The notes under the pieces: generated by a model
The model's input: the letters and a program-made list of their open reading frames with translations, nothing else
Databases searched by the model: none
What the model was told of the DNA's origin: nothing
Virus record (IMG/VR): IMGVR_UViG_3300042453_001749
DNA: 64,000 bases
Origin: an uncultured virus (IMG/VR IMGVR_UViG_3300042453_001749)
Lineage: Duplodnaviria; Heunggongvirae; Uroviricota; Caudoviricetes
Strand: one strand, 5' to 3'
Shown here: positions 29,831 through 61,391 of the stretch, piece by piece
Layout of the letters: each line of letters begins with the position of its first letter
Numbering within the stretch: position 1 is the first letter of the stretch
Translations under genes and position numbers: made by a program

Positions 29831-29912
29831 GGGTAGGTTTCCGAGTGGTTAAAGGAATCTGACTGTAAATCAGACGGCTCTGCCTTCACTGGTTCAAATC
29901 CAGTCCTGCCCA
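29831..29912 (+). tRNA. trnY: tRNA-Tyr(GTA)
   Basis: Cloverleaf with long variable arm, CT-GTA-AA. Confidence 0.93.
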
Positions 29913-29914
29913 CC

Positions 29915-29943
29915 TTGACGATCAAACCACCGTCTGCTATGAT
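29915..29943 (+). promoter_or_regulatory. Sigma70-type promoter
   Basis: TTGACG-N17-TATGAT with TG extension. Confidence 0.7.
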
Positions 29944-29960
29944 ATGAGAGTTGAAAATCA

Positions 29961-30013
29961 ACTGCGGTACTCCCCTTCAGTAGGTTCAGGAGTGGCGGCG
30001 ATAGGAACCTACT
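29961..30013 (+). ncRNA. Candidate pseudoknotted small RNA in the tRNA-Arg leader
   Basis: AGTAGGTTC/GAACCTACT stem; loop GGAGT pairs with upstream ACTCC. Confidence 0.5.
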
Positions 30014-30016
30014 TAT

Positions 30017-30090
30017 GGGCTAGTAACTCAGTGGAATAGAGTAACGCTCTTCTAAAGCGTGAGTCGCTGGTTCGAATCCAGCCTAGCCCG
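30017..30090 (+). tRNA. trnR: tRNA-Arg(TCT)
   Basis: Cloverleaf, CT-TCT-AA. Confidence 0.93.
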
Positions 30091-30129
30091 TTGGATAGTA
30101 TAAATAATATTATCCAAATATAAAATAAA

Positions 30130-30483
30130 ATGTCAACCTGTTCTACTTGCAAAATTGAATTAAACGAAGACAATGCTTATAAAAAGGGCAAACGACTTCA
30201 ATCATATTGCAAGACTTGTATGAATAGAATATTTCAAGATCGTTGGAAACAACGAAAACTTGATGCTATTCAATACAAAGGTGGAAAGTGTCAAGTATGT
30301 GGTTATTCCAAATACTATGGTGCTTTAGAATTTCATCATAGAAATCCCAAAGAAAAAGAATTTGTTTGGCAAAAAATGCGATTAGTTTCAAAAGATAAGT
30401 TAACTGCAGAACTTGATAAATGTGATTTACTCTGTGCCAATTGTCATAGAGAAATACATCACGAAATACTTATTCCACAATAG
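30130..30483 (+). mobile_element. HNH homing endonuclease within the tRNA cluster
   Basis: CxxC...CQVCGY...LEFHH...LLCANCHREIH; stop codon lies inside tRNA-Asn. Confidence 0.82.
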
Positions 30484-30545
30484 CTCAGCGGTAGAGCATT
30501 CGACTGTTAATCGACTGGTCCCTGGTTCGATCCCAGGTTGTGGAG
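30474..30545 (+). tRNA. trnN: tRNA-Asn(GTT)
   Basis: TCCACAA/TTGTGGA acceptor stem, CT-GTT-AA. Confidence 0.92.
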
Positions 30546-30676
30546 TTGGAAGGACTGGAAATGTCTGGGACTTCCTCTAAATCCTAAGTTTACTTAGGTC
30601 GGGGACTTGATCACCCCCGTTCGTTGCCTAGTTCTGGGGTCCTCCGTTGGTTGAGGGTTACCCTTCCTAGGCATTT

Positions 30677-30748
30677 GGGCGATTAACTCAGCGGTAGAGT
30701 GCCTCGTTTACACCGAGTATGTCGGCGGTTCGATCCCGTCATCGCCCA
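30677..30748 (+). tRNA. trnV: tRNA-Val(TAC)
   Basis: GGGCGAT/ATCGCCC, TT-TAC-AC. Confidence 0.92.
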
Positions 30749-30776
30749 CTTGCATAAATACTCAAAAAAGAGTATA

Positions 30777-31211
30777 ATGGAAAAATTATTCAAACTCTTA
30801 AGTGATGCTCAGTCATCACTTTTTGTGTTGTTTCATAAAACTTGGGCGTTTCATTGGAATGTAGTTGGTGAAGATTTTACCCAACTACATCAACTTTTTG
30901 GTGGACAATATGAAACTATGTTTGAAGAGATTGATAGACTCTCTGAACACATGAGATACTTAAATGTTAAACCTCTGAGTTCTCTTTCAAGAATGCTTGA
31001 GGTTACGCAAATTAAAGAAGCGGCAAGTTCAACTGGTGCAAAAGAAATGCTCCAAGAACTTCTTGAAAATAATACTAAATTTTGTGAGTTAATGTCTGAG
31101 ATTTCAGAAGAAGCAGAAGAGCAAAAATCGTATGCAACTGCGAATTTAGTTCAAGATTTAATGGAGTCTCATGGTAAATTTGTATGGATGTTAAGATCAC
31201 ATTTACAGTGA
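30777..31211 (+). CDS. dps: Dps / DNA-binding ferritin-like protein
   Basis: FHWNVVG.DF..LH.LF...IDRLSEH...H.K..WML; start 30777 (30699 is inside the tRNA). Confidence 0.9.
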   Translation: MEKLFKLLSDAQSSLFVLFHKTWAFHWNVVGEDFTQLHQLFGGQYETMFEEIDRLSEHMRYLNVKPLSSLSRMLEVTQIKEAASSTGAKEMLQELLENNTKFCELMSEISEEAEEQKSYATANLVQDLMESHGKFVWMLRSHLQ

Positions 31212-31226
31212 TAAGGATGAAGAACA

Positions 31227-31478
31227 ATGATTTCAGTAAGATGCAAGGATTGCAATAGAGAATTAACTGGAAATTCCACAAAGACGGTAACTTGTGGATG
31301 TTCTAATATGACTACTATTCGTGGCGGAATTATTTCTGCTGTTGACTTATCTCGTGTAGTCATGTTAAACTCAATAAATACGAATACAAAAACAGGTATT
31401 CTTTCTAACGAAGATCTTGCCTTTCAAGAAGCGAGACGTAAGCGTAAAGTCAGAAAACTTGATTTTGAAATTCGTTAA
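31227..31478 (+). CDS. Zinc-ribbon hypothetical protein
   Basis: CKDC...CGC. Confidence 0.65.
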   Translation: MISVRCKDCNRELTGNSTKTVTCGCSNMTTIRGGIISAVDLSRVVMLNSINTNTKTGILSNEDLAFQEARRKRKVRKLDFEIR

Positions 31479-31483
31479 AACCT

Positions 31484-31568
31484 GGAAGCGTGGCCGAGTG
31501 GTTTAAGGCACCTGTCTTGAAAACAGGCAATGTGAAAGCATTCGTGGGTTCAAATCCTACCGCTTCCG
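31484..31568 (+). tRNA. trnS: tRNA-Ser(TGA)
   Basis: Long variable arm, CT-TGA-AA. Confidence 0.93.
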
Positions 31569-31680
31569 TTACAAATATTACAGAATTTAAGATTGTCTTA
31601 AACACTTTCTTGAAACCAACACAAACTTGACAGTCTAAGAACACTCACTAGCATAACTAGTAGTATTCAACCTCAACCCC

Positions 31681-31830
31681 ATGGATCAGCACACCTACGA
31701 TAATTGGGTGAAGATCAAGGAGACTTTTGAAGCCTCTGGGAACACAAATAATATGTTCTACAAGAGAGCAGTTGAAATAGTCAAAACCCACAAAGATCCT
31801 CTTGCAAAGTTTCTTGGAGATGAGAAATGA
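31681..31830 (+). CDS. Small hypothetical protein (49 aa)
   Basis: MDQHTYDNWVKIKETFEASGNTNNMFYKRA... Confidence 0.65.
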   Translation: MDQHTYDNWVKIKETFEASGNTNNMFYKRAVEIVKTHKDPLAKFLGDEK

Positions 31831-32033
31831 TGGAACCATTTGATGATGATTATGCAACACATTCTGAAGTTCAGGAGATGATTGATGCCGCAATACGACG
31901 ACACAACCGTAATGCTTCTATCATTAGTATGTGCGTTGGTTGGGTGGTTCTTGCTTTATTTGCTGAGGGACTTTTGAGGTTGATTGGAGTTATTCCACCA
32001 CTTCTACCATGGCTCAACATTACCCTGAAATAA
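31827..32033 (+). CDS. Small membrane protein
   Basis: MIDAAIRRHNRNASIIS plus TM helix. Confidence 0.65.
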   Translation: MMEPFDDDYATHSEVQEMIDAAIRRHNRNASIISMCVGWVVLALFAEGLLRLIGVIPPLLPWLNITLK

Positions 32034-32188
32034 TAGGCATCGTCCTACTATTGGTATTTGCCGCCACAATGTTCTATCAAGGAACTTGTATCATAAGAAA
32101 TCAGCGTGGTTATTCTTTACGTGACTATATGAAACAAGATAGCACAACAATGCGTAAAAGAATAGAGGAACTACTTAGAGACAAATGA
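32009..32188 (+). CDS. Small membrane protein (59 aa)
   Basis: EIIGIVLLLVFAATMFYQG...MRKRIEELL. Confidence 0.55.
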   Translation: MAQHYPEIIGIVLLLVFAATMFYQGTCIIRNQRGYSLRDYMKQDSTTMRKRIEELLRDK

Positions 32189-32298
32189 TAACGATTACAG
32201 AAGAAGACTTACAAGAATTACGAGAAATAGTTTTAAGACAAAAAATGGATGAGTTATTTGAAGAACCATCTACCTATGAGGACGAAGAAAATGACTAA
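32185..32298 (+). CDS. Small acidic protein (37 aa)
   Basis: ATGA coupling; ...QKMDELFEEPSTYEDE. Confidence 0.5.
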   Translation: MITITEEDLQELREIVLRQKMDELFEEPSTYEDEEND

Positions 32299-32383
32299 AA
32301 CATTCATATCGTCAATTTTACTTTTCGGTGCGATTGGAACCTTTATTTACTGGGGTCTTACACACGCATATCCACAACATTAG
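32291..32383 (+). CDS. ndhQ: NdhQ-like NDH-1L small subunit (30 aa, N-terminally shortened)
   Basis: MTKTFISSILLFGAIGTFIYWGLTHAYPQH matches the recalled NdhQ TM/C-terminus IAISAVLILGFIAGLIWWALHTAYA. Confidence 0.6.
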   Translation: MTKTFISSILLFGAIGTFIYWGLTHAYPQH

Positions 32384-32391
32384 GAGACATT

Positions 32392-32559
32392 ATGGAAAGA
32401 TTCAAAGATTTTTCAGAGTATGAATTGCGTCTCCTTGCAGATGCAGTATGGGTAAGACAAAGACATCATATTGCTGGAGACCGAAAGTTTAAAGAGTATG
32501 GAGCACTTCTTGGTGAGATTCAGAAATTGGTCGATTACAAACCAGGAGTATTCCTATGA
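32392..32559 (+). CDS. Small hypothetical protein (55 aa)
   Basis: SD AGGAG; ATGA overlap with PTOX. Confidence 0.6.
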   Translation: MERFKDFSEYELRLLADAVWVRQRHHIAGDRKFKEYGALLGEIQKLVDYKPGVFL

Positions 32560-33056
32560 GAAAGTTTAATGATGTAGTTCTATCAATCACGGTAGCCATC
32601 ATTGACTTTCTTTACCGTGATCTACCAATCCAAAGATTCTGGGTTCTGGAAACAATCGCCAGAGCACCTTACTTCGCGTTTCTCAGTGTTCTTCATCTCA
32701 GAGAATCACTAGGTCTCCGAACAGAAGAACACTACTACCTGATGAAAGAACACTTTGCTCAAACAATCAATGAAACCGAACACCTCAGAGAAATGGAGTC
32801 GCGTGGCGGAGCAGACCGCTGGGTTGATCGTTTTTTCGCTTATCATTTGGTTCTCATCTATTATTGGATTATGGTGGGTTATTATTTTCTTGCTCCTGTT
32901 TTCGCTTATCATCTGAACTCAGGTATTGAGTTTCATGCAACAGAAACATACCTAGATTACTTCTGGGATCATCAGGATGATGCGAAGATTGTAGAGATCG
33001 CAGTGGATGAAATGAATCATTATATTGAACTAGAACGAGCAATGGAGATGATCTGA
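32556..33056 (+). CDS. ptoX: Plastoquinol terminal oxidase (PTOX)
   Basis: RFWVLETIARAPYFAF, NETEHL, EFHATETY, DEMNH di-iron motifs. Confidence 0.92.
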   Translation: MRKFNDVVLSITVAIIDFLYRDLPIQRFWVLETIARAPYFAFLSVLHLRESLGLRTEEHYYLMKEHFAQTINETEHLREMESRGGADRWVDRFFAYHLVLIYYWIMVGYYFLAPVFAYHLNSGIEFHATETYLDYFWDHQDDAKIVEIAVDEMNHYIELERAMEMI

Positions 33057-33178
33057 TGTTATTAGCAAAAGCACTTTTATTTGTTTCAGTTCCTTTCATA
33101 TTAACAACTCTTTATTTCGGAACAAAAGGGGGGTATTATGATACCGAAAAGTATAAAGGAAACGGAACCGCACATTAG
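33056..33178 (+). CDS. ndhP: NdhP-like NDH-1L small subunit (40 aa)
   Basis: TM helix plus FGTKGGYYDTEKYKGNGTAH, matching the recalled NdhP signature FFGT.NGFYD.D.Y.GNG(S/T)AH; TGATG coupling to PTOX. Confidence 0.85.
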   Translation: MLLAKALLFVSVPFILTTLYFGTKGGYYDTEKYKGNGTAH

Positions 33179-33359
33179 ACAGCGGTATCATTTTGCCGCA
33201 TCAGCATTTGTAAGAATGTGGGGACATAGTTCTTTACATGATCGTCGTATCGTAGAATTCTGTGAAGTATGGGCATATAGAACTGAAAATGCTCCGTTAG
33301 ACAGCATGACTTTAGACCAATATTTTTATTACGAATTTAAAACTTGGAGAGGATACTAG
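33138..33359 (+). CDS. Hypothetical protein
   Basis: 73 aa ORF. Confidence 0.55.
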   Translation: MIPKSIKETEPHIRQRYHFAASAFVRMWGHSSLHDRRIVEFCEVWAYRTENAPLDSMTLDQYFYYEFKTWRGY

Positions 33360-33449
33360 TGACTAATTTGCTCATTTCTAGTTTAGAGAATTAGTAATGC
33401 ATATCCAAACTAAATACGTTAAATAATTGTTAAATTAAAAGATTAACCA

Positions 33450-33707
33450 ATGACTTTATTATCAGAAGTACCTATTTTTAATCTTGCTCTTGCTGCAGAG
33501 AAAAAGCACGGAGAGCATACTCATATGGTTATTGAAGCAATTCCCAAAGATGAAAATGCAAATACTGATATTAATAATGTTTCAGTAAATGATGTAGTTT
33601 GGTGGGTGGAGTTTGAAGATCAGGTGAAAACATTTAATACATTTGATGAAGTAAGTCGTTTCTTTATGGAAGAAGCGGTTGCAAGTTCACCCGCCACTGT
33701 GGTATAA
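33450..33707 (+). CDS. Hypothetical protein
   Basis: 85 aa ORF. Confidence 0.5.
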   Translation: MTLLSEVPIFNLALAAEKKHGEHTHMVIEAIPKDENANTDINNVSVNDVVWWVEFEDQVKTFNTFDEVSRFFMEEAVASSPATVV

Positions 33708-33725
33708 TAATCAAGTCAACAAAAA

Positions 33726-33799
33726 CGGGGTGTAGCGCAGTTTGGTAGCGCATCCGCTTTGGGAGCGGGCGGTCGTAGGTTCAAATCCTATCACCCCGA
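33726..33799 (+). tRNA. trnP: tRNA-Pro(TGG)
   Basis: CGGGGTG/CACCCCG, TT-TGG-GA. Confidence 0.93.
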
Positions 33800-33819
33800 C
33801 TTACATTTTATTTTTTTAA

Positions 33820-33999
33820 ATGGAAAAATTTACTGTAGAAGAATTTCAATCTAATTTCGATAACCTCATGGACAGAGTAGAAAACGGAGAATCTTTTTTG
33901 ATTACTAGTGAATATGGTGATGCAGTAATAGTTCCACATAACGAAGAAGTTGAAGAAGTCATACGAATACACACCGAACTAAACAATGATGCCCCATAA
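33820..33999 (+). CDS. Phd/YefM antitoxin-like small protein (59 aa, not in ORF track)
   Basis: MEKFTVEEFQSNFDNLMDRVENGESFLITSEYGDAVIVP pattern. Confidence 0.6.
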   Translation: MEKFTVEEFQSNFDNLMDRVENGESFLITSEYGDAVIVPHNEEVEEVIRIHTELNNDAP

Positions 34000-34005
34000 T
34001 TTTTT

Positions 34006-34077
34006 GGGACTGTCGCCTATGGGTTAAGGCCCACTGCTTATAACGGTGTGAACGGAGTTCAATTCTCCGCAGTCCTA
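34006..34077 (+). tRNA. trnI: tRNA-Ile(TAT)
   Basis: GGGACTG/CAGTCCT; anticodon arm CACTG-CT-TAT-AA-CGGTG. Confidence 0.82.
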
Positions 34078-34151
34078 TTGGAGGTTCCGTGCCTGTGAAG
34101 AGAAATCTGAGGCTGGGTAAATCCTCCATTCGCTATTTGCGAATAGCGAAT

Positions 34152-34224
34152 GCTCCTTTAGCAATCTGGTGAATGCAGCGAACTCATAATTCGCCTAAGG
34201 CGTGTTCGATCCACGCAAGGAGCA
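34152..34224 (+). tRNA. tRNA with CAT anticodon (elongator Met or Ile2)
   Basis: GCTCCTT/AAGGAGC; GCGAA-CT-CAT-AA-TTCGC. Confidence 0.85.
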
Positions 34225-34249
34225 CTGGACAGATCCGAAACTGTCCTAC

Positions 34250-35207: not shown

Positions 35208-35248
35208 GTAGAATATATAATAAGAAGATTATTTACTTGATTGCTTTT

Positions 35249-36325
35249 ATGAGTCAATATACGAAAACAGCACTTGTACTTGGTGCTGGTGGTTTCATTG
35301 GAAGTCACATGGTAAAAAGACTGCGCTCCGAAGGATATTGGGTTCGTGGTGTAGATCTTAAACTTCCTGAGTTTTCAGAAAGTGAAGCACATGAATTTAT
35401 TGTAGGAGACCTAAGAGATCTTACTTTTGTTGAAAGAGTTCTCCAATATAAAGGTCCTTACAGAAATTTCTATAACTTTGTTCCTTCAAGATATATTGAT
35501 ACCTTTGATGAGGTATATCAATTTGCTGCTGATATGGGTGGAGCAGGTTTCGTCTTTACTGGCGAAAACGACGCTGATATTATGCATAACTCGTCACAAA
35601 TTAACCTTAATGTTCTTGAGGCACAGCGTCAATTAAATGACTTTAAGAGCGTAAATAAGACTAAAATTTTCTATTCTGGATCTGCTTGCATGTATCCAGA
35701 ACATAATCAATTGGATCCCGATAATCCAGACTGTCGTGAAGAATCAGCATATCCAGCAAACCCAGATTCCGAATATGGATGGGAAAAACTCTTCAGTGAA
35801 AGACTCTATTTTGCGTACTATCGTAACTATGGGATTCCTGTTAGGGTCGCTCGTTATCACAACATCTTTGGCCCAGAAGGAACATGGGAAGGTGGAAGAG
35901 AAAAGGCACCTGCAGCAATCTGTCGCAAAGTCGCCTACCTCCCAGAAGAAGGAGGAACTATTGATGTGTGGGGTGATGGAAAACAAACTCGGTCGTTCTT
36001 GTATATTGATGAATGCATTGAGGCAACCCGCAGATTAATGGATTCTGATTTTATTGGACCAGTGAATATTGGATCAGAAGAAATGGTTACTATCAATCAA
36101 CTTGTAGAAACTGCAGCAAGAGTTTCTGGAAAAACTGTAGAAAGGAATCATATCGATGGACCTCTTGGAGTTCGCGGACGTAATTCCAACAATGATCTTA
36201 TCCGTGAAAAACTGGGATGGGATTATTCTCAGACTCTTGAGGAAGGAATTCGTAAGACTTATAATTGGATTGAGTCCCAAATCCTAATTAAAGAAACAAC
36301 TGATAATTTATTGCAAACAGTATGA
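35249..36325 (+). CDS. NAD-dependent epimerase, GDP-mannose 3,5-epimerase-like
   Basis: GAGGFIG, AADMGGAGF, SACMYP, YGWEKL, GGREKAPAA.CRK, GVRGRNS. Confidence 0.9.
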   Translation: MSQYTKTALVLGAGGFIGSHMVKRLRSEGYWVRGVDLKLPEFSESEAHEFIVGDLRDLTFVERVLQYKGPYRNFYNFVPSRYIDTFDEVYQFAADMGGAGFVFTGENDADIMHNSSQINLNVLEAQRQLNDFKSVNKTKIFYSGSACMYPEHNQLDPDNPDCREESAYPANPDSEYGWEKLFSERLYFAYYRNYGIPVRVARYHNIFGPEGTWEGGREKAPAAICRKVAYLPEEGGTIDVWGDGKQTRSFLYIDECIEATRRLMDSDFIGPVNIGSEEMVTINQLVETAARVSGKTVERNHIDGPLGVRGRNSNNDLIREKLGWDYSQTLEEGIRKTYNWIESQILIKETTDNLLQTV

Positions 36326-37179
36326 AAATTACTATTCTTGGTTCCAGTGGGCAGATTGGTGCCTACCTTACAGATTACTTGCGCGAAAAAGGTCATTATG
36401 TTTATGAGTTTGATGTCGTAAATAATCCTCATGAGGATATGACCTTGATTCCCAATCTTCTTCTTGAAGAAAGAATTGCAGATTCAGACTTTGTGTTCTT
36501 CCTTGCATTTGATGTTGGTGGATCTCGTTATCTTAAAAAGTATCAACACACTTTCCAATTCATTGATAACAATGGTCGTTTGATGGTCAATGCATTTGGA
36601 CTTCTTAAAAAGTATAATAAGAGGTTCATCTTTGCATCATCTCAGATGAGTAATATGAGTTACTCTCCATATGGAGTTCTCAAGAATGTTGGTGAACTTT
36701 ATACTAAGTCATTGAATGGACTTATCGTTAAGTTCTGGAATGTTTATGGTATTGAAAAAGATCATGAGAAGGCTCATGTAATCACTGACTTTATTCGTAA
36801 GGGATTTGAAACTGGTGTTATTGATATGATGACTGATGGACAAGAAGAAAGAGAATTTCTTTATGCTGAGGATTGCTGTGAAGCACTTGAATCAATCATG
36901 GAAAATTATAATGACTTTACCTCAGAGGATAATCTTCACATTACAAGTTTTCATTCTACAAAAATTATTGATATCGCAAGTATAATTTGTGGTCAATTTA
37001 ATTTGATTGGAAGGCATGATGTTAAGGTTCAACCTTCTGCTGAAAAGGATAGTGTTCAGATGGACAAGAGAAATAAACCAGATACTTACCTGATGAAATG
37101 GTGGCAACCTAAGACTACAATTGAGCAAGGAATTGCACAGATTTTTAAGAGTATGAGGGAAGACTATGCTGGCGTTTAA
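36322..37179 (+). CDS. NAD-dependent epimerase/dehydratase
   Basis: GSSGQIG, YGVLK, NVYG. Confidence 0.85.
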   Translation: MKITILGSSGQIGAYLTDYLREKGHYVYEFDVVNNPHEDMTLIPNLLLEERIADSDFVFFLAFDVGGSRYLKKYQHTFQFIDNNGRLMVNAFGLLKKYNKRFIFASSQMSNMSYSPYGVLKNVGELYTKSLNGLIVKFWNVYGIEKDHEKAHVITDFIRKGFETGVIDMMTDGQEEREFLYAEDCCEALESIMENYNDFTSEDNLHITSFHSTKIIDIASIICGQFNLIGRHDVKVQPSAEKDSVQMDKRNKPDTYLMKWWQPKTTIEQGIAQIFKSMREDYAGV

Positions 37180-38020
37180 TCAAATTGGAAACCTTGGAAG
37201 ACTTGGAAACCAAATGTTTGAATATGCAGCATTAAGAGGTATTGCTGCTAAACATGAATATGATTGGTGTATTCCTCCAACACATCTGACTGGTATTGAA
37301 AACTACAGTCTTCATAAGTGTTTCAAGATGGAGGACGTGCAAGAAGAAAATCTTCAAATTTTAGAAGTCCAATATCTATCTGAAAGATTTTTTCACTTTG
37401 ATGAAGAGTTGTTTGAGAAATGTCCAGACAATGTAAGTCTTCATGGATTTTTTCAATCTGAGAAATATTTCTCACATGTTGAAAATGTTATAAGAAAAGA
37501 ATACACGTTTCATGATGAGCACATAGAACCATGTAAAGAGTTTATGTCTGAGTTTGAAGGGCAAGAACCAATCATGCTTCATGTTCGTAGGGGAGATCCA
37601 AATTTAATGGATCCTCGTGGTTTTAAGTGGTCTTATACTCAGTGTGGTGATCAGCATCCTGTTCAACCACTTGATTATTATGAACGTGCTTTAGAGGTAT
37701 TTGATGATAATCAACCAGTGATTGTGTTTTCTGATTCTCCCGAATGGGTCGAAGAGCAAGAATTTTTCTCTGGAGATAGATTTTTTCAATCAGTCCCTCA
37801 ACAAAAATATGCGGATGGTTCCTATACACCATATGCAGATTTGTGTTTGATGTCCCTGTGTTCTCATGCTATTATTGCTAACAGTTCTATGAGCTGGTGG
37901 GGTGCTTGGTTGCAATCAAATCCAAATAAAAAAGTAATCACCCCAAAGAATTGGTTTGGACCAGCATATGCTGATAAGGATACTAAAGATTTGTATTGCA
38001 GTGAATGGGAGATTTTATGA
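37166..38020 (+). CDS. GT11 alpha-1,2-fucosyltransferase-like
   Basis: GRLGNQMF, GFFQSEKYF, HVRRGD, IIANSSMSWWGAWL. Confidence 0.9.
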   Translation: MLAFNQIGNLGRLGNQMFEYAALRGIAAKHEYDWCIPPTHLTGIENYSLHKCFKMEDVQEENLQILEVQYLSERFFHFDEELFEKCPDNVSLHGFFQSEKYFSHVENVIRKEYTFHDEHIEPCKEFMSEFEGQEPIMLHVRRGDPNLMDPRGFKWSYTQCGDQHPVQPLDYYERALEVFDDNQPVIVFSDSPEWVEEQEFFSGDRFFQSVPQQKYADGSYTPYADLCLMSLCSHAIIANSSMSWWGAWLQSNPNKKVITPKNWFGPAYADKDTKDLYCSEWEIL

Positions 38021-38763
38021 AAATAACAGAAAGAGAACATGTAATACATGCTTTAACCAATCCATACTGTGATCTGGGGGTCAATGGTCTAAGATTATTT
38101 TCTTTGATAGAACCATGTGATAATTTAATTTGCGTTGATCTGGGTGTTAGACACGGAGTTTCTTCTGCAATTCTCTCTTATCGTGCGGAAGAAAAAAACA
38201 CCCATATCTTTGGGTGTGATATTACATTCAATGTGCTTGATGAATGGTACGATAGAACTTCTAATTACCACAAAATTGCTGCTGATAGCGTTACTCTTGG
38301 AAAAATGTGGGGTGAAGGTTTAGTAGATTTAGTATTTGTAGATACTCTTCACGTTAGAGAACAAGTCCTTGCCGAACTTTATTTTTGGACAGATTATATT
38401 AAACCAAATGGATTTTTTGTTTTTCATGATACGGAATGGGAGGATGGTATTTGCGAAATATATGATGGAAGAGAGACTAAAACTGTTAATCATGCAGTTA
38501 TGGATTTCTTTGGATTGAAGGAGTTGGATGGGGAATATGAAGATGACCATATTGCAGTAAGGCATTTTAAAGAAAGTTATGGTATGACCTTCGTACAAAT
38601 TAAAGACGTATCTTATATTCCAGAATATAAAAAAAATATTGATTGGGAAGAAGTTTTTGAGATGCGTAACTTCTTAACGAATATATATTTTAATAGATCT
38701 TCTCCATATTATATCGAGGAAATTGATCCCAATTGTTTAAATGAAATGGTAATTACTGTATGA
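38017..38763 (+). CDS. Class I SAM methyltransferase (Methyltransf_24-like)
   Basis: VDLGVRHGVS, LVFVDTLH, VFHDT. Confidence 0.8.
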   Translation: MKITEREHVIHALTNPYCDLGVNGLRLFSLIEPCDNLICVDLGVRHGVSSAILSYRAEEKNTHIFGCDITFNVLDEWYDRTSNYHKIAADSVTLGKMWGEGLVDLVFVDTLHVREQVLAELYFWTDYIKPNGFFVFHDTEWEDGICEIYDGRETKTVNHAVMDFFGLKELDGEYEDDHIAVRHFKESYGMTFVQIKDVSYIPEYKKNIDWEEVFEMRNFLTNIYFNRSSPYYIEEIDPNCLNEMVITV

Positions 38764-39752
38764 AGATTTTTGTAACTGGATGTGCTGGACTTCTTGGGTC
38801 CAATTATACTAGGCATCTTCTTAAGAATGGTCATGATGTAATTGGTATTGATGATCTTTCTGGGGGATATAAAGCGTTTCTTCCTAAAGATGAACACTTT
38901 ACTTTTGCTAAATTGAATCTAGAGAAAAGAAAAAAACTTATAGATTTATTTGATGAACATAAACCAGATGTAGTAGTACATTTTGCTGCTTATGCTGCCG
39001 AAGGACTTTCTCCTTTTATTAGGAATTTTAACTATAGGAACAATCTTATTTGCTCTGCAAATTTGATTAATGAGTGCATTAAACACGATGCTAAGATGAT
39101 TTTTACATCAAGCATGGCTGTTTATGGTGCTCAGGAACCTCCTTTTACTGAAGATAAGAGACCACAACCTATCGATCCTTATGGCGTTGCAAAGTATGCC
39201 GTAGAGGTTGATCTTGAATTAGCTCGTAAGCAATTTGGGTTAAGGTATAATATCGTTCGTCCACACAACGTTTTGGGTAAGTACCAAAATATTTGGGATC
39301 GTTATAGAAACGTAATTGGAATTTTTATTAGAAAAACTCTAAATGGAATTCCTATTCTTGTGTATGGTGATGGTGAGCAGACAAGAGCTTTTTCAGATAT
39401 CAAATATTATATGGAACCATTCGATAAACTTCTAACAGAGTACGATGGTGAAATTTTTAATATTGGTGCTGATAAGTATTTTTCACTTAATGAAGTTGCT
39501 CAAACAGTTCAAAAGATTGGGCGAAAATATGGATATGATGTTCCTATCGAGCATGGGGAAGCTAGGCATGAAGTAAAACACGCTTATTGTGATCATACAA
39601 AAGCAAAGACTATATTAGAATTTGTGGATAACACAAACCTTGAAGATCTCATTGAAGATGTTTTTGTTTGGGCTATGAAGCAACCAAATAGAAAAGTTAA
39701 AGATATGGATTATGAAGTTACTAAAAATATTTACGAATACTGGAAAGACTGA
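38760..39752 (+). CDS. NAD-dependent epimerase (UDP-glucose 4-epimerase-like)
   Basis: TGCAGLLG, SSMAVYG, YGVAK, GDGEQTRAF. Confidence 0.88.
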   Translation: MKIFVTGCAGLLGSNYTRHLLKNGHDVIGIDDLSGGYKAFLPKDEHFTFAKLNLEKRKKLIDLFDEHKPDVVVHFAAYAAEGLSPFIRNFNYRNNLICSANLINECIKHDAKMIFTSSMAVYGAQEPPFTEDKRPQPIDPYGVAKYAVEVDLELARKQFGLRYNIVRPHNVLGKYQNIWDRYRNVIGIFIRKTLNGIPILVYGDGEQTRAFSDIKYYMEPFDKLLTEYDGEIFNIGADKYFSLNEVAQTVQKIGRKYGYDVPIEHGEARHEVKHAYCDHTKAKTILEFVDNTNLEDLIEDVFVWAMKQPNRKVKDMDYEVTKNIYEYWKD

Positions 39753-40429
39753 TGCAAGAACCAATCAAAGGATTAACGACGGATAGGGATGAATTTTTAT
39801 CAAGGGAAGAATTAAAAGAATATGATTATGATTTCTTGAATAAACTTTATGTAATGTTTTTAGATGACGAGGGTGCTTTATTTAATTGGTTGGGTTGTAA
39901 TGGATTAGTGGAACAATTGGATTTTCATAAAAAATATGTGGATCAAATCAAACCTAAAAATGTTTTAGAGGTTGGAACTCATAAAGGATATTATTCATAT
40001 TTTATGAAAAAGTTAATTCCAGATGTTAAAATTTGGACATTCGGCATAAATGAAGAAAGTCAACTTTGCGTTGATGAAATTCACAAGTATTTTGGTGAAG
40101 AATTTATTACTTTCTTTCCTGGAAATTCTGTAGAGACTTTAAGTAATTTTGAGAATCCAGAACAAATTAAATTTGATCTTGCTTGGGTTGATGGTGGGCA
40201 CGATTACGAATGTGCATATTCAGATTTAAAAAATTGTGCTAGACTGGGAATTGATAATATATTAATTGATGATTGTGATAATGGGCTTGTGAGTAAATCT
40301 GTACAAAATTTTGTGAATGATAATCAACCAAAATACGTTATTATGGAAGAAAGTCCTTTTGAAAGAAAGATCACATACATTGGAAATTCATCTCATTGGA
40401 AACCAATTTCATCGGAAACCTTAAATTAA
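39752..40429 (+). CDS. SAM methyltransferase
   Basis: LEVGTHKGYY, WVDGGHDY, IDD. Confidence 0.8.
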   Translation: MQEPIKGLTTDRDEFLSREELKEYDYDFLNKLYVMFLDDEGALFNWLGCNGLVEQLDFHKKYVDQIKPKNVLEVGTHKGYYSYFMKKLIPDVKIWTFGINEESQLCVDEIHKYFGEEFITFFPGNSVETLSNFENPEQIKFDLAWVDGGHDYECAYSDLKNCARLGIDNILIDDCDNGLVSKSVQNFVNDNQPKYVIMEESPFERKITYIGNSSHWKPISSETLN

Positions 40430-40442
40430 ATTAATTAAAATT

Positions 40443-41114
40443 ATGAGAAATTCAAAAGTTCTTGTCTATCAACCAAAGAATAGACCTGCTAAAGTCGCTA
40501 AACCATTTAGTATTCAAGACATCTATGAAGATGCATGTGCATGTGAAGTATCTGATATTTACATGCATCTTCCTGTTTTGTATGAATACGCTAAGAAGTG
40601 TGATCATGTAACCGAAATGGGGGCAAGATCTGGAAATAGTACATCTGCATTTTTATATGCTAATCCTAAAAAATTTGTCTCTTATGATTATCAATATGAA
40701 AATCCAGAACCACACCTCGCTAGAGAAGTTAACGCTCTAATTAAAGTCTTTCATCAAGCACAAGAATTGGGTGTGAATTGTGAATATATTGGTGCCGATG
40801 TTCTTACAGTAGAAATTGAAGAAACTGATATGCTTTTCATTGATACGTGGCACTGCTACGATCAACTTAAAAAAGAACTAGAACTTCATGCTGGTAAAGT
40901 TAGAAAGTATATTGCTTTTCACGATACCTATACATTTGGTGAGCGTGGTGAAGGTTATCCATCCATGGATCCAAACCATCCACAAAGAGATACTCTTGAT
41001 GGATCAGGTGGAATTAGACTAGCAATTGATGAATTCTTGGAAGAAAATCCCGAATGGGAAATTGAATATGAGACTGAAGAAAATAACGGACTAATCATTA
41101 TTACTAAGAACTGA
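40443..41114 (+). CDS. SAM methyltransferase
   Basis: EMGARSGNST, LFIDTWH, IAFHDT, NNGL. Confidence 0.8.
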   Translation: MRNSKVLVYQPKNRPAKVAKPFSIQDIYEDACACEVSDIYMHLPVLYEYAKKCDHVTEMGARSGNSTSAFLYANPKKFVSYDYQYENPEPHLAREVNALIKVFHQAQELGVNCEYIGADVLTVEIEETDMLFIDTWHCYDQLKKELELHAGKVRKYIAFHDTYTFGERGEGYPSMDPNHPQRDTLDGSGGIRLAIDEFLEENPEWEIEYETEENNGLIIITKN

Positions 41115-41115
41115 T

Positions 41116-41976
41116 ATGAAAATTTTTGATTCGTTTCGATTCTTTAATGAGTTGGAACTTTTAGAAATTAGATTTAATCTACTTTATGATGTTGTAGACT
41201 ATTTTGTAATCACTGAATGTCCATATACAATTAGTGGACATGAAAAGCCATTACTTTATCTGGAAAATAAAGATCAGTTTTCAAAGTTTAATGATAAAGT
41301 GATTCATGATATTACGGAAGAAATTCCTAATGACTTCTCGGATTATGTAGAGAAGAAAAAATATCATACTGCCTATGGGGATATTGATAATAACTGCGGG
41401 CAGAGATTTATTGATATTCCTGTTAGGTATCAAAGAGATATCTACGCTAGAAATTGTACAGCGTTTTCTTTAGAAAAGGCAGGAGTTTCTGATGAGGATA
41501 TTGTTATTACCAGTGATGCTGATGAAATTGTTAATCCATTAATTCTTAAGAATGTGGATTGGTTCGATGCTTCAAATCATTATGCATGTCTTCAAAGATC
41601 ATTTTATTATAAACTCAACATTCTTTATCAAGAAAATTGGGCAGGATCTAGAATTTGTTCTTGGAAAACTCTTAAGGAGATTAGTGTTGATAAACTGAGA
41701 CAGAGTTTAAGTGAATCTCATTTAATCGAGTCTGCTGGTTGGCATTGGAGTTATTTTGGTGATGCTGATAAATTCAAACAAAAGTTAGCAGCGTCTGCAG
41801 ACTGCCATCACAATACACCAGATGTAATTGATAATGCAGAAGAAAAAATTGAAAACGGATTAGATCCTCTCAATCGCGGAAATGTTTATCCTACAGTTCC
41901 TATCGATGATTCTTTCCCAGAATACATTTTGAATAATCAAGATAAGTTTACTCAGTACATTAAACCATGGAATTGA
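41116..41976 (+). CDS. GT17 family glycosyltransferase (GlcNAc-transferase-like)
   Basis: FFNELELLEIR...VDYFVITE, SDADEI, GWHWSY. Confidence 0.85.
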   Translation: MKIFDSFRFFNELELLEIRFNLLYDVVDYFVITECPYTISGHEKPLLYLENKDQFSKFNDKVIHDITEEIPNDFSDYVEKKKYHTAYGDIDNNCGQRFIDIPVRYQRDIYARNCTAFSLEKAGVSDEDIVITSDADEIVNPLILKNVDWFDASNHYACLQRSFYYKLNILYQENWAGSRICSWKTLKEISVDKLRQSLSESHLIESAGWHWSYFGDADKFKQKLAASADCHHNTPDVIDNAEEKIENGLDPLNRGNVYPTVPIDDSFPEYILNNQDKFTQYIKPWN

Positions 41977-42914
41977 TTGAAGGCGTAGCATTATCTAAAC
42001 TTTGCGATTACTCTTTCGGTGATCAATCTGGACAATGGGGTAATATTTTTACCTCTTTTATGAAAGATGCTAATTTAACAAATGTTGAATTTGTTTCTAA
42101 AGTTTTTGAACTAAAGAAACAAAGAAACTATATGACTTTGTTTATTGATAATATCAGACTGTATAAGAGAGATATTGAAGAAGTAAAACCAGAAGATAAA
42201 GATTATGTTTGGTCTTTAATGGATAGAAGCGATCTTTTAAAATTGTGTTCTAACTTTAAAGATATAAACTTTATCATCTTTACTAATCTTGAAGATACCC
42301 CAATTGATCAATATATCTTTGATGCTATCCCAGAAAATGTCCTTTGTATTTCTGCTGTAAACGCTGCTTCTTGGGGTGGTAAAGTTATTCCAGCACCATA
42401 TGGATTACAAAGGCAAATGCATCCTGGAGATAATAGAAATGAGATTCTGAATAAAGTGATGTTAGATTCTGATATCACTCCAACCAATCTCTTATACATA
42501 AATCATAGCACTCATACAAATCCAAAAGAGAGATCTGGTATTAATGAAATCTTTGAAGATAAGTATTGGGTATTGGTAGATAAAGAACGTGTTGGGTATG
42601 AAGAGTTTTTGAAGAAAATCAAAAATCACAAATTTATGATTTGTCCTATCGGTAACGCTTTAGACTGTCACCGAAATTGGGAAGTGTTATACCTCAAAAG
42701 AGTTCCAGTGATGAAGAGACATCCTTATCTTGAGGAACTGTATAAGAATTATCCTGTTCTTTTTGTAGACAACTATGAAGATGTTACTGAAGAACTTTTA
42801 GTTCAAAATGAACATCTTTATAATGAGGTAAAACAAATAGATTTTACCACATTGACCCTACCATATTTCTATGATAACATTGTAAGTAAAGCTATTAAGG
42901 AGATTTCATGCTAG
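41967..42914 (+). CDS. Exostosin/GT47-like protein
   Basis: KFMICPIGNALDCHRNWEVLYL. Confidence 0.65.
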   Translation: MELIEGVALSKLCDYSFGDQSGQWGNIFTSFMKDANLTNVEFVSKVFELKKQRNYMTLFIDNIRLYKRDIEEVKPEDKDYVWSLMDRSDLLKLCSNFKDINFIIFTNLEDTPIDQYIFDAIPENVLCISAVNAASWGGKVIPAPYGLQRQMHPGDNRNEILNKVMLDSDITPTNLLYINHSTHTNPKERSGINEIFEDKYWVLVDKERVGYEEFLKKIKNHKFMICPIGNALDCHRNWEVLYLKRVPVMKRHPYLEELYKNYPVLFVDNYEDVTEELLVQNEHLYNEVKQIDFTTLTLPYFYDNIVSKAIKEISC

Positions 42915-43891
42915 TTAATGAAATGTATCTTGGATCTGGAATTGGAAACCAGATCTGGGGCGCTGTTGTGGTTAGAATCATCGCAGAAAAGTTAGGATAT
43001 GATTATGGTATTATGGGAAAGCACCTTTGGAAAGGTGCTGGTTGGATGCCTTTTTTCTGGGGTAATGAAGTAATTGGTGGGTCTGGTCCTGATGGAGGAC
43101 CACCTGATTCTCTTCCGCAAGGAATCGAATACTGGTATAAAGAATGTCAGTATCGACATCCAAAAAGTGGTCATGATTATAATCCTGTTGACCCAATGTT
43201 GTTTTTTCTCCCAGATAACACAAAAGTTGATGGAACATTTCAAAACATGATCTTTATTGAAGATCGTCGTGATGATATTAGAGAATGGTGTAAACTTGAT
43301 GAAGATAAAATTATTAGAGATTATTCTCAAGATAATATTTGTGTAGTTCACTTTAGGGGTGGAGATTATTCTACTGGACATTCTTTCTTGCCTCCCGAGT
43401 ATTATCAGATGGCGATGAAAGCAATGCAAGAAGAAAATCCTGATATTAAGTTTGTTGTTGTGACTGATGATCCAAATCTAGCTAGAAGACATATTCCAAA
43501 CGCTGAAGTTGTTGGTGCAGCAGTTTCTGATGAACCAGGGGGTCCAGATTATAAAATTGGATGGTATCAGATGGGTGGAGGCCCTCTTTCTATTGATTAC
43601 ACTATTTTGAATACTGCAAAATATGTTATCATGTCTGCATCTACATTTTCTTTCTGGCCTGTTTGGTTATCTACAGAAGTTAAGAAAGTAATCGCACCAA
43701 TGTATTGGTTTGATTGGAACATCTCTGATGGATTTTGGAGACCTGCAGATTCCATCGTTATGGATTGGAATTACATGGATAAAAACGGAACAGTAAAGAC
43801 TGCTGCTCAGTGTTGGGAAGAATACGAGAATTATAAGGGCGTACAAAACTTTGGACTTTCGGGTATCATTACAAAATATGAAAACGATTAA
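42908..43891 (+). CDS. GT11-like glycosyltransferase
   Basis: GIGNQIW, HFRGGDY, VVTDD, SASTFSFW. Confidence 0.8.
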   Translation: MLVNEMYLGSGIGNQIWGAVVVRIIAEKLGYDYGIMGKHLWKGAGWMPFFWGNEVIGGSGPDGGPPDSLPQGIEYWYKECQYRHPKSGHDYNPVDPMLFFLPDNTKVDGTFQNMIFIEDRRDDIREWCKLDEDKIIRDYSQDNICVVHFRGGDYSTGHSFLPPEYYQMAMKAMQEENPDIKFVVVTDDPNLARRHIPNAEVVGAAVSDEPGGPDYKIGWYQMGGGPLSIDYTILNTAKYVIMSASTFSFWPVWLSTEVKKVIAPMYWFDWNISDGFWRPADSIVMDWNYMDKNGTVKTAAQCWEEYENYKGVQNFGLSGIITKYEND

Positions 43892-44735
43892 TAAAAAGAA
43901 AAATTTCTACGGATGGATTGCCGCAGAAAATGAAACTCTTTCTGATTATACTTCTGCATGTCTTGAAGCAGTGGAATATGATAATGAATTTTCTAACTTC
44001 AGGAAGAATGAAAAATACAGAACAATTTTAGAAGGTGCTCCAAAACTTTTTTCTGATTATTATGTTCAGAAAATTAATTCTCATTTAAAGAAAAATTTGT
44101 TTTACAGCAATCTTGAAAAGTTTAAAGAGAATGATAAGATTGGTAATCCAGACTTATACGATGAGAGTGAAATTGGTTTAATTTCTCCAAGTACTCTTAA
44201 GTTTGCATTTAACGCTATTGATATTGTTTGTTTTCTTGAACAACAATCGCAACCTCTTTCTTTAAAAAATATTATTGAGATTGGTGGTGGGTATGGTGGA
44301 CTTTGTTTACTATTATCTAATCTAATTGAATTTGAGTCTTATACTCTAATAGATTTACCTGAGGCTTGTAAACTTGCTCAAAAGTATATTTCAAATTTCG
44401 AGCATTTAAAAGATAAAGTCAATTTCGTTCCATGCGATAAACTTTCTTCAATAAAGAAAAAAGATTTTGATTTAGTTATTGCTGTAAATTCTCTTTCAGA
44501 GTGTAATCTTGAAACTCAATTAGATTACTTTGATAAGTTTGTATCTAAATCAAATTTTTCATACATTGTTCGTAATCCAGACACTCAAGAAAGATTTGAG
44601 CATCATGTAAAGACTATTGATTCTCTTCCAGAAAACTTTTTAGTTGATGATACAAATAAGGTAGAAGAGTGGTATAGTAGTAATATTATTGTGTATATCA
44701 AGCGAGGTGATGAAACTAATGATCAATCTACCTAA
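43878..44735 (+). CDS. Putative sugar O-methyltransferase
   Basis: ND.IGNP, IIEIGGGYGG, YTLIDLPE, SLSE. Confidence 0.75.
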   Translation: MKTINKKKNFYGWIAAENETLSDYTSACLEAVEYDNEFSNFRKNEKYRTILEGAPKLFSDYYVQKINSHLKKNLFYSNLEKFKENDKIGNPDLYDESEIGLISPSTLKFAFNAIDIVCFLEQQSQPLSLKNIIEIGGGYGGLCLLLSNLIEFESYTLIDLPEACKLAQKYISNFEHLKDKVNFVPCDKLSSIKKKDFDLVIAVNSLSECNLETQLDYFDKFVSKSNFSYIVRNPDTQERFEHHVKTIDSLPENFLVDDTNKVEEWYSSNIIVYIKRGDETNDQST

Positions 44736-45393
44736 TGTAACTTTATTCTGCATATCTTCAAATAATATTCCTGGAGCACTCTTTGCTCTACAGCATAGTA
44801 TGAAGGGAATTAATTTTGGTGCAGTAAAGTTGATTACTCACGAAGATCCAGGTAATCTTCCCGAGGGAATTGAGTTTTCTAAATGCTATGAGATTAAGTC
44901 AATTCATGATTACAATTATTATTGCATTTACAACCTGAGCAAACATATTGATACTGATTATTGTCTTCTTGTTCAACCAGATGGGTTTGTAATTAATCCA
45001 GATAAATGGGATAATGAGTTCTTTAATTATGATTATATTGGTGCTCCTTGGGAGCAAGTTCCTCATTCTTATCTGGATCCTTGGGGAAAACCTCATAGAG
45101 TTGGAAATGGGGGATTCTCTTTTAGAAGTAAAAAACTTTTAGATGTACCCAAGAGAGCTTATATTCACTTTGATGTAAATTGGGGAGACTTTTATAAGCA
45201 TTTTGGATATGGTAATACTGGAGAGGATGGAAATATCTGCGTTCACAATCGCCATATCTACGAAGCATTGGGGTGTAAGTTTGCCCCAGTGGAAGTTGCC
45301 GCTAAATTTTCTCACGAAAAACCACTTCCAGAAACTCAGGGAATTGTTCCCTTTGGATTCCATTATCATTTACCACCAGGAACTGTACTATGA
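44710..45393 (+). CDS. DUF5672-like glycosyltransferase-related protein
   Basis: LLVQPDGF, YDYIGAPW, VGNGGFSFRS, FGFH. Confidence 0.8.
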   Translation: MKLMINLPNVTLFCISSNNIPGALFALQHSMKGINFGAVKLITHEDPGNLPEGIEFSKCYEIKSIHDYNYYCIYNLSKHIDTDYCLLVQPDGFVINPDKWDNEFFNYDYIGAPWEQVPHSYLDPWGKPHRVGNGGFSFRSKKLLDVPKRAYIHFDVNWGDFYKHFGYGNTGEDGNICVHNRHIYEALGCKFAPVEVAAKFSHEKPLPETQGIVPFGFHYHLPPGTVL

Positions 45394-46181
45394 TCGGACA
45401 TAATCACTTAGGAAAGAATGGTCGTTTTGGAAATCAAATGTTCCAATACGCTGCTACTAGAGGAATTGCTGCTAATCGAGGATTTGATTGGTGTATTCCC
45501 CCTGGTCCTAAAACTTATGATGAATTCAACGATGAAGAAAATCAGCATAAGTTATTCATGGCTTTTAATCTTCCTCATGTAAAGGAGGTTAATCTTTTTC
45601 CAGCACCTTATGTGGAAGAGGAAACATTTAGATTTAATGAAAATCTTTTTAATAACTGCGAAGATAACGTAAATCTTTATGGGTATTTTCAATCACCAAA
45701 ATACTTTAATCATATTGCTGATGAAATTCGTGAAGACTTTACTTTCGTAGATGATATTCTCAAACCATGTAAAGAGATGTTCTCATTTGGAGTTGATGCA
45801 ATTTCTCTTCATATTCGTAGAACAGATCATCTAATTAAACCACAATATCATCCAGTTCTCCCTCTTGAATACTACGAAGCAGCACTGGAAAAACTACCAG
45901 AAAATCTTCCAGTTATGATTTTTTCTGATGATCCAAAGTGGTGTAAGACTCAATCTTTATTTGAGAGTGATAGATTTTTGATCTCGGAATCTGATGATAA
46001 TATAATTGATATGTGCCTTATGACTCTTTGCTCATATCATATCATTGCTAATAGTACTTATAGTTGGTGGGGAGCATGGTTGGCTAATTCTAAAAAAATT
46101 ATTGCACCCAAAGTTTGGTTTGGACCTGCTGCTACAATTGATGAAGTTGATTTAGTACCTGAGGATTGGGAAAGAATTTAA
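45390..46181 (+). CDS. GT11 alpha-1,2-fucosyltransferase-like
   Basis: GRFGNQMFQ, GYFQS.KYF, HIRRTD, IIANSTYSWWGAWL. Confidence 0.9.
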   Translation: MIGHNHLGKNGRFGNQMFQYAATRGIAANRGFDWCIPPGPKTYDEFNDEENQHKLFMAFNLPHVKEVNLFPAPYVEEETFRFNENLFNNCEDNVNLYGYFQSPKYFNHIADEIREDFTFVDDILKPCKEMFSFGVDAISLHIRRTDHLIKPQYHPVLPLEYYEAALEKLPENLPVMIFSDDPKWCKTQSLFESDRFLISESDDNIIDMCLMTLCSYHIIANSTYSWWGAWLANSKKIIAPKVWFGPAATIDEVDLVPEDWERI

Positions 46182-52193: not shown

Positions 52194-52403
52194 ATGACTG
52201 TAACAACTAATGAGCGCGGACAAATGAACATGTTCGCTAAAGAACCTACAATGTGGATGTCGAAAGAAGACATCGAACGTTATGGGTTTGAACCTTATGC
52301 AGTAAAAGCGGAGAAAGCAAATGGACGTTGGGCTATGGTCGGCATTGTTGCTGGTTTCCTTTCTTATGCTATCACAGGTAAATTCTTCTTTGGATTGATT
52401 TGA
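52194..52403 (+). CDS. hli: High-light inducible protein
   Basis: AEKANGRWAMVG...TG. Confidence 0.92.
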   Translation: MTVTTNERGQMNMFAKEPTMWMSKEDIERYGFEPYAVKAEKANGRWAMVGIVAGFLSYAITGKFFFGLI

Positions 52404-52619: not shown

Positions 52620-52727
52620 ATGAACGAACGCGCAGAACGTATTAATGGTTGGGCAGCAATGATCGGTATTGTTGCCGCTATGGGCAGTTATGCTTTTACT
52701 GGTCAAATCATTCCAGGTATTTGGTGA
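52620..52727 (+). CDS. hli: High-light inducible protein (35 aa, not in ORF track)
   Basis: MNERAERINGWAAMIGIVAAMGSYAFTGQIIPGIW; SD GGAGG. Confidence 0.92.
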   Translation: MNERAERINGWAAMIGIVAAMGSYAFTGQIIPGIW

Positions 52728-52813: not shown

Positions 52814-52818
52814 AAATT

Positions 52819-61363: not shown

Positions 61364-61391
61364 AAATATGAGAAACGATAATGGAGGATTG

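Follow-up and report, generated by a model that had tools for sequence, protein, structure and literature searches.

The 64,000-nucleotide stretch IMGVR_UViG_3300042453_001749, an IMG/VR record of an uncultured virus of the Caudoviricetes that was analysed over its full length and is referred to below as the window, contains on its plus strand a 30-codon open reading frame (ORF; 32291..32383) predicted to encode a homologue of NdhQ, a one-helix subunit of the cyanobacterial NDH-1L complex. Judged by their sequences, the homologues of this ORF in other viruses make up a widespread, conserved and coding gene family of cyanomyoviruses. Downstream of it lie the genes for a plastoquinol terminal oxidase (PTOX; ptoX, 32556..33056, plus strand, 166 amino acids (aa)) and for NdhP (33056..33178, plus strand, 40 codons and a stop), another one-helix subunit of NDH-1L. 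Among phages, ndhQ and ndhP form a recurrent linkage that is phage-made, unlike the situation in the hosts examined, and this pair, not the trio with PTOX, is the core of the arrangement. The best explanation is that phage NdhQ and NdhP would probably support the NDH-1L complex of the host by inserting into it, with PTOX as a separate function.

The ORF at 32291..32383 translates into MTKTFISSILLFGAIGTFIYWGLTHAYPQH, a peptide with one transmembrane helix and the C-terminus WGLTHAYP. Both this frame and the one at 33056..33178 are present with the coordinates and translations given in the original prediction, which had read the former as an NdhQ lacking its N-terminus and the latter as NdhP; both readings held. 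A direct phmmer comparison of the 30-aa peptide with the PDB (E ≤10) returned two NdhQ chains only, with E-values of 0.34 and 0.73, and because this direct match is weak the NdhQ identity depends on an intermediate host profile. When the window peptide was aligned with eight homologous micro-ORFs of isolate phages (alignment A1, nine sequences), the resulting profile gave PetM of the cytochrome b6f complex as its best PDB match (E 0.15), followed by NdhQ (E 0.46). In picocyanobacterial genomes, which were reached via an NdhP alignment, the same phage profile matched a chromosomal 38-aa ORF of a Synechococcus genome (E 1.4e-8, 37 bits) located between thiamine and riboflavin genes. This 38-aa host peptide in turn matched NdhQ chains only in the PDB (E 1.7e-5), and of the 81 genomes of that family, 69 contain it at E ≤1e-5 and 71 at E ≤1.

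A host profile (A4) built from 30 such chromosomal picocyanobacterial peptides retrieved the NdhQ chains 6khi_Q (E 1.9e-8), 6l7o_Q (E 4.1e-7) and 6hum_Q (E 1.5e-5) from the PDB, the next matches being to PsbX (E 0.18). Comparison of the phage and host profiles by hhalign gave a probability of 98.4% and an E-value of 5.6e-15 over 26 columns with 58% identity. Among all 2367 stop-to-stop frames of at least 15 aa in the window, the host profile assigned 46.0 bits (E 3.4e-13) to the frame at 32237-32380, and the runner-up reached 4.8 bits (E 2.5). Residues F18, W21, G22, A26, Y27 and P28 do not vary among 38 phage NdhQ sequences, nor do the corresponding columns among 30 host sequences. The phage and host proteins (chain Q of 6KHI/6KHJ, 6L7O, 6NBY and 6HUM; 36-45 aa in picocyanobacteria) thus have in common one helix and the C-terminal W-[G/A]-L-x-x-A-Y, and the phage WGLTHAYP is identical to that of many host NdhQ sequences.

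The phage proteins differ from those of the hosts in their length (26-35 aa), in the missing N-terminus, in their phage-gene neighbours and in their frequent position near ndhP; their membership of NDH-1L is predicted. The host profile aligns to the window frame only from profile position 12, with no similarity in the in-frame residues upstream of that point. Each of the 70 unique phage forms begins 3-12 residues before the helix, without the host N-terminal segment and its conserved D-x-P-M. The loss of about 17 residues in the original prediction is borne out against the 45-aa chain of T. elongatus and amounts to only about 8 residues against picocyanobacterial NdhQ.

An assignment of the 30-aa ORF to PetM was tried and rejected. 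A host PetM profile (20 genomes) gave the window peptide -0.7 bits and reached a maximum of 5.4 bits over 87 phage peptides, while the host NdhQ profile gave the window peptide 47.1 bits and the 87 phage peptides between 20.5 and 47.1 bits. The peptide has no Pfam match at E up to 10, and in the hosts PetM is encoded at a locus separate from that of NdhQ (29 of 31 genomes). The early ranking of PetM is a chance likeness around F-V-x-W-G-L. Scans of Pfam and NCBIfam gave no match for either of the two micro-peptides, and these libraries seem to hold no NdhP or NdhQ model.

The host protein goes by other names in public records: NdhQ of Candidatus Synechococcus spongiarum and of related metagenome-assembled genomes (MAGs) is called 'RNA polymerase subunit sigma', other copies are called 'hypothetical protein', and among the 41 host cluster members read none is named as NdhQ.

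Conservation of the 30-aa ORF in related phages is extensive. Nine isolate phages carry ndhQ unannotated, in gaps or small overlaps between annotated genes, and at least 119 stretches were recovered when viral contigs were scanned with a DNA pattern that encodes the C-terminal motif. The host profile matched the micro-ORF (E ≤1e-3) in 78 of 80 fetched motif loci, a rate that is partly given by construction, because the degenerate DNA pattern selects the C-terminal motif. In the part of the gene that encodes the helix, column entropy at codon positions 1, 2 and 3 is 1.41, 0.86 and 1.57 bits, respectively, and T accounts for 58% of the second codon positions. A stop codon follows AYP within 0-5 codons in 73 of 75 unique phage sequences, and 53 of 70 unique ORFs have GGAG, GAGG or AGGA 4-18 nt ahead of their predicted ATG. 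A tblastn search of phages with the window peptide recovered 28 records at E ≤10 and undercounts the family, since the copy of ACG-2014f was missed; the same search with host NdhQ gave no match, probably because the helix was masked as being of low complexity. None of the five exact phage NdhQ sequences looked up is in a collection of 15 billion called proteins, and no candidate sharing words with the 44-aa frame of the window was found there.

Two viral contigs depart from the usual form. In the IMG/VR contig L322, two matches to the NdhQ profile flank PTOX at about 300 nt on each side and may represent a duplicated ndhQ, and in L143 (5911-6138) the NdhQ frame has no stop past AYP and continues for about 35 extra residues, as a result of a lost stop or as a fused form.

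Contigs from RNA libraries cover the gene chain around PTOX; they come from relatives that are 85-99% alike. One of them (X23) covers 32248-32397 and thereby the entire NdhQ ORF, another (X22) covers 32311-32489, and further ones cover the junction of PTOX and NdhP and the region from NdhP to the following ORF, orf73. One X22 contig links 32359 to 33056, which corresponds to a form with NdhQ next to NdhP and without PTOX and the small ORF that precedes it (orf55). Such contigs do not prove transcription, and they are therefore a weak hint only.

The second micro-ORF, at 33056..33178 (plus strand), translates into MLLAKALLFVSVPFILTTLYFGTKGGYYDTEKYKGNGTAH and is predicted to be a full-length phage NdhP. 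Its residues 6-40 match chain P of the NDH-1L complex of T. elongatus (6khi_P, E 2e-9; 6hum_P, E 1.9e-8), the peptide matches phrog_2173 (E 2e-20), and it shares 63-76% identity with the NdhP of 78 picocyanobacterial loci. It is the same 40-aa protein, with a C-terminus of the FGT-GGYYD-Y-GNGTAH type, as the cyanophage NdhP annotated in P-TIM68. A tblastn search with the window NdhP gave 390 phage records at E ≤1, most of them labelled hypothetical or unannotated, and among the matches listed the label 'NdhP' was found in P-TIM68 only. Phage ndhP is often flanked by zwf and gnd; in P-TIM40 its direct neighbour is ndhI. The discovery paper of NdhP, by Nowaczyk et al. in 2011, is said in reviews to have already noted the cyanophage protein. 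As the original prediction supposed, phage ndhP is in print, in the review PMC10452541 and in PMC6596454 and PMC12801897. The last of these (2025) calls ndhP uncommon in cyanophages, with P-TIM68 as the sole known case; with 390 tblastn records, the gene is far commoner in phages than stated there. Records titled Nonlabens xiamenensis (a 188-kb contig) and Polynucleobacter (a MAG) carry a phage-type NdhP in DNA of 40% G+C, and these are probably phage contigs in non-cyanobacterial assemblies.

The linkage of the genes was followed from both sides. In the set anchored on NdhQ (78 viral loci whose flanks reach at most 6 kb and are often shortened by contig ends), NdhP is encoded on the same strand in 33 loci, downstream in 27 and upstream in six, and is adjacent to NdhQ in two. 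PTOX is present in seven of the 78 loci, each time between NdhQ and NdhP, and NdhQ-NdhP without PTOX occurs in 26. In the set anchored on PTOX, which consists of the closest 80 of 169 confirmed relatives of the window PTOX, all at least 81% identical to it and hence a biased sample, NdhQ is found in 64 loci, NdhP in 48, both in 44 and neither in 12. NdhQ is present in 53 of the 63 PTOX loci with at least 2 kb of upstream sequence. In hosts, NdhQ was found in none of 80 NdhP loci (3 kb on each side; two of the 80 are phage-like contigs) and NdhP in none of 30 NdhQ loci (1.5 kb on each side). Among 13 whole isolate genomes, selected through NdhQ or NdhP, nine carry NdhQ and eight carry NdhP; both genes are present in four, namely ACG-2014h, S-CAM9, S-SCSM2R and ACG-2014f.

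Within the NdhQ-NdhP linkage, PTOX and orf55 are read here as exchangeable inserts. The original prediction had described the three genes as one cassette; the linkage is seen in the window, while a fixed unit is not supported by the wider sample, where the trio is a swappable arrangement because PTOX intervenes in so few of the NdhQ loci and nine of the 13 isolates have one of the two ndh genes alone. It is unlikely that the trio is one co-evolved module in which NdhQ and NdhP, acting in plastoquinone reduction, and PTOX, acting in plastoquinol oxidation, were jointly selected to rewire plastoquinone flow; this would be the original prediction in its strong form. Such a module would fit the translational coupling of the ORFs in the window, the order NdhQ..PTOX-NdhP in 42 and PTOX-NdhQ-NdhP in two of the 80 loci of the closest PTOX relatives, and the action of all three proteins on one quinone pool. 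It fits poorly with the commoner occurrence of NdhQ-NdhP without PTOX, with 11 of the 80 PTOX loci that hold NdhQ and PTOX and none of the other tracked genes, and with the position of phage NdhP elsewhere, between zwf and gnd or beside ndhI; moreover, cyanophage accessory genes gather in variable islands anyway.

As described in PMC6992706 and PMC7021789, NdhP and NdhQ sandwich NdhD1 from opposite sides and contact NdhD1, NdhF1, lipids and carotenoids; the four proteins NdhD1, NdhF1, NdhP and NdhQ constitute the NDH-1L-specific module, and the loss of either NdhP or NdhQ disassembles NDH-1L. According to the same sources, NDH-1L transfers electrons from ferredoxin to plastoquinone and pumps protons. 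The NdhD1 of the host was identified by its match to 6hum_D (E 1.5e-246). Under the preferred explanation, phage NdhQ and NdhP would be produced during infection and would insert beside host NdhD1, by analogy with the replacement of D1 by the product of phage psbA. These clamps could keep NDH-1L assembled as host protein synthesis declines or, as an alternative to such upkeep, could favour NDH-1L over the other NDH-1 forms with a common core. Upkeep of NDH-1L would sustain plastoquinone reduction with proton pumping, and PTOX, a separate and swappable neighbour, could oxidise the quinol made by NDH-1L. NDH-1L and PTOX may act together as a bypass that pumps protons, and the shift towards proton pumping and ATP put forward in the original prediction would be a possible outcome.

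Several points weigh against the support of NDH-1L by a phage-encoded pair. Translation of the phage peptides and their presence in NDH-1L are putative, and the window peptide by itself does not match solved NdhQ significantly (E 0.34). The host N-terminal segment missing from the phage protein carries near-invariant residues (D7, M10), and the shortened NdhQ may bind differently or fail to bind. The loci of the viral census were preselected by their C-terminal motif, which partly inflates the match rate; the RNA-library coverage, a weak hint, stems from relatives and may reflect DNA carry-over. As to the linkage, PTOX lies between NdhQ and NdhP in only seven of 78 NdhQ loci, and the PTOX-anchored loci represent only the closest relatives of the window PTOX. 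NdhQ or NdhP occurs alone in nine of the 13 isolate genomes, so that the two are not obligate partners: NdhQ was not found in four of the five genomes selected through NdhP, nor NdhP in five of the eight selected through NdhQ.

The absence of the N-terminal segment in 70 of 70 unique phage forms, together with its near-invariant host residues and the disassembly of NDH-1L upon NdhQ loss, would also suit a competitor: a shortened NdhQ that fills the NdhQ site and, by making the NdhD1/NdhF1 module looser or different, remodels or weakens NDH-1L. This is improbable, however: N-terminal length varies among hosts too (36-45 aa), in the phages the helix is complete and the invariant C-terminal motif retained, and the protein is paired with a full-length NdhP, to which one phage adds ndhD, a combination that reads as module building.

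It is very unlikely that the host-derived peptides now serve in another membrane role, in a different thylakoid complex or in a phage process unrelated to NDH-1L. The solitary occurrence of NdhQ or NdhP in nine of 13 isolates and the conserved neighbours without known function (orf37, orf55 and orf73) would agree with such a role. However, the host-conserved pattern F..WGL..AYP is invariant or nearly so over 38 diverse phage sequences, which argues for the same binding surface as in the host, and the phages recurrently link two subunits that are seated on one NdhD1.

Finally, it is extremely improbable that the 30-codon ORF arose as a chance frame, is left over as an untranslated remnant or encodes a relative of another one-helix protein such as PetM, since the first profile search that placed PetM above NdhQ, the empty Pfam and NCBIfam scans and the absence of the peptide from the protein collection are countered by the scores of the PetM and NdhQ profiles (at most 5.4 against at least 20.5 bits over the phage peptides), by the separate locus of host PetM, and by the coding signature, stop placement and Shine-Dalgarno-like motifs, which favour a translated gene.

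In the window the genes orf37-ndhQ-orf55-ptoX-ndhP-orf73 form a chain of overlapping or near-abutting ORFs on the plus strand. The small hydrophobic protein encoded by orf59 (32009..32188, +; phrog_1953, E 9.3e-21), to which no function is assigned, precedes this chain, as it frequently does elsewhere: 22 of 78 viral NdhQ loci have it ahead of NdhQ, and 39 of 80 PTOX loci contain it. The acidic 37-aa product of orf37 (32185..32298, +) belongs to phrog_2505. This ORF extends by 8 nt over the start of ndhQ from its ATG, is the gene immediately ahead of NdhQ in 53 of the 78 viral NdhQ loci, and has a homologue that likewise precedes NdhQ in phages DSL-LC03 and S-SRM01. A Shine-Dalgarno-like GAGGA (32278..32282, +) is located 8 nt upstream of the ndhQ ATG. 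Beginning 8 nt past the ndhQ stop, orf55 (32392..32559, +; phrog_2064, E 3.6e-17) encodes a soluble 55-aa protein of no known function that has no match in Pfam or NCBIfam; its end overlaps the start of ptoX in the sequence ATGA. It is present in 44 of 80 PTOX-anchored and 11 of 78 NdhQ-anchored loci. The original prediction had the two micro-ORFs flanking PTOX in a tightly packed chain, which is the case on the NdhP side and not on the NdhQ side, where orf55 intervenes. The proposed coupling of PTOX and NdhP by TGATG was confirmed, the PTOX stop TGA (33054-33056) and the NdhP ATG having one base, 33056, in common. The end of ndhP is overlapped by 41 nt by orf73 (33138..33359, +; phrog_593, E 1.6e-13), coding for a soluble 73-aa protein of no known function. 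This protein generally comes next after NdhP, or after NdhQ, and was seen in 37 of the 78 NdhQ loci and in 48 of the 80 PTOX loci, which makes it a candidate fourth member of the island. For orf73 there was no PDB or Pfam match, and the Atlas gave unnamed viral clusters only, with a best score of 0.84. Promoter-like sites number 9, as against 7.2 +/- 3.0 in shuffled sequences, and no plus-strand terminator was found between 31400 and 33900.

The PTOX of the window matches phrog_4235 across residues 1-166, its full length (E 7.4e-79), and the Pfam AOX family PF01786 (48.6 bits, cut-off 22.7), and the gene is annotated as PTOX in related phages. Read by eye, the protein contains the motifs LET, ETEH and EMNH, which are candidates for the glutamate and E-x-x-H iron ligands of PTOX and the alternative oxidases, the di-iron carboxylate quinol oxidases. 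It is the same short 166-aa protein as known cyanophage PTOX, and only its position between ndhQ and ndhP is noteworthy. PTOX is common in cyanomyoviruses, being present in 35 of 153 genomes in the review PMC10452541, and according to review literature its usual interpretation is that of a safety valve that relieves an over-reduced quinone pool.

The window belongs to a T4-like cyanomyovirus, as indicated by its gene content and related phages. It encodes cobS, gp45, gp44/62, gp43, uvsX, gp41, mazG, nrdAB, psbA (59715-60791), psbD (61335-62450), a sugar-modification cluster and nine tRNA genes. Its DNA was matched in lake-water metagenome runs, and the nearest related record is identical to it over 32150-33400. 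Eight of the nine tRNA genes flank the ndhQ-ptoX-ndhP chain (29831-34225), those for Tyr, Arg, Asn, Val and Ser upstream and those for Pro, Ile and Met downstream. The large sugar-modification cluster (35237-50492) is a long series of genes for nucleotide-sugar epimerases, glycosyltransferases, methyltransferases and UDP-glucose dehydrogenase, and several of its members have no PHROG match. Two short plus-strand ORFs resemble high-light-inducible proteins, one (52194-52400) with a sub-threshold Pfam chlorophyll a/b-binding match of 17.3 bits and the other (52620-52724) judged by eye alone; a peroxiredoxin gene (52810-53322) is located downstream of both. A gene of the endonuclease VII/HNH type (60891-61322, +) sits between psbA and psbD.

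Phage psbA and psbD encode host-derived subunits of thylakoid complexes that are thought to replace the host copies, and a replacement by phage NdhQ and NdhP is proposed by analogy. Replacement of D1 by the product of phage psbA has been established experimentally. The phage NDH-1 genes ndhI (P-TIM40) and ndhD (S-SCSM2R and metagenomes) are likewise phage copies of host subunits, to which NdhQ adds a further one; NdhQ is not listed in the papers on phage ndhI and ndhD. S-SCSM2R has been reported to carry ndhD and ndhP (PMC12801897, 2025). In the genome of this phage (PQ898602.1; L006:1489-1590), an unannotated NdhQ ORF scoring 41.2 bits with the phage profile was found just upstream of talC. 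Of the four proteins that PMC7021789 names as the NDH-1L-specific module, S-SCSM2R would therefore encode three.

In agreement with the original prediction, which knew of no phage NdhQ, no description of one was found in the full-text literature searched, a search that did not extend to most subscription journals or to the NdhP/NdhQ discovery paper. In the review PMC10452541, NdhQ occurs once, in a reference title. What would be new is phage NdhQ, as a further host-derived gene of photosynthetic electron transport; phage NdhP and phage PTOX were already known. NdhQ escapes standard annotation, with about 30 codons, no entry in the protein collection for the five sequences and no annotation in the nine isolates.

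Many phages thus encode both of the small subunits that clamp NdhD1 into NDH-1L. A broader scheme is possible, if rather doubtful, in which cyanomyoviruses widely carry their own parts of the NDH-1L distal module (NdhQ and NdhP, and in some cases NdhD and NdhI) and infected cells build a partly phage-specified NDH-1L that is fed by phage pentose-phosphate enzymes and drained by phage PTOX or plastocyanin, providing a proton-pumping route to ATP independent of carbon fixation. The identification of phage NdhQ turns a vague boost of cyclic or respiratory electron flow by phages into a testable claim about one complex, and cultured phage-host pairs with both genes exist, namely S-CAM9, S-MbCM7/ACG-2014h and S-SCSM2R on Synechococcus hosts of the WH7803 type. 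Cyanophage photosynthesis genes of host origin shape the carbon and energy processed by infected picocyanobacteria, and NdhQ would add one to their number.

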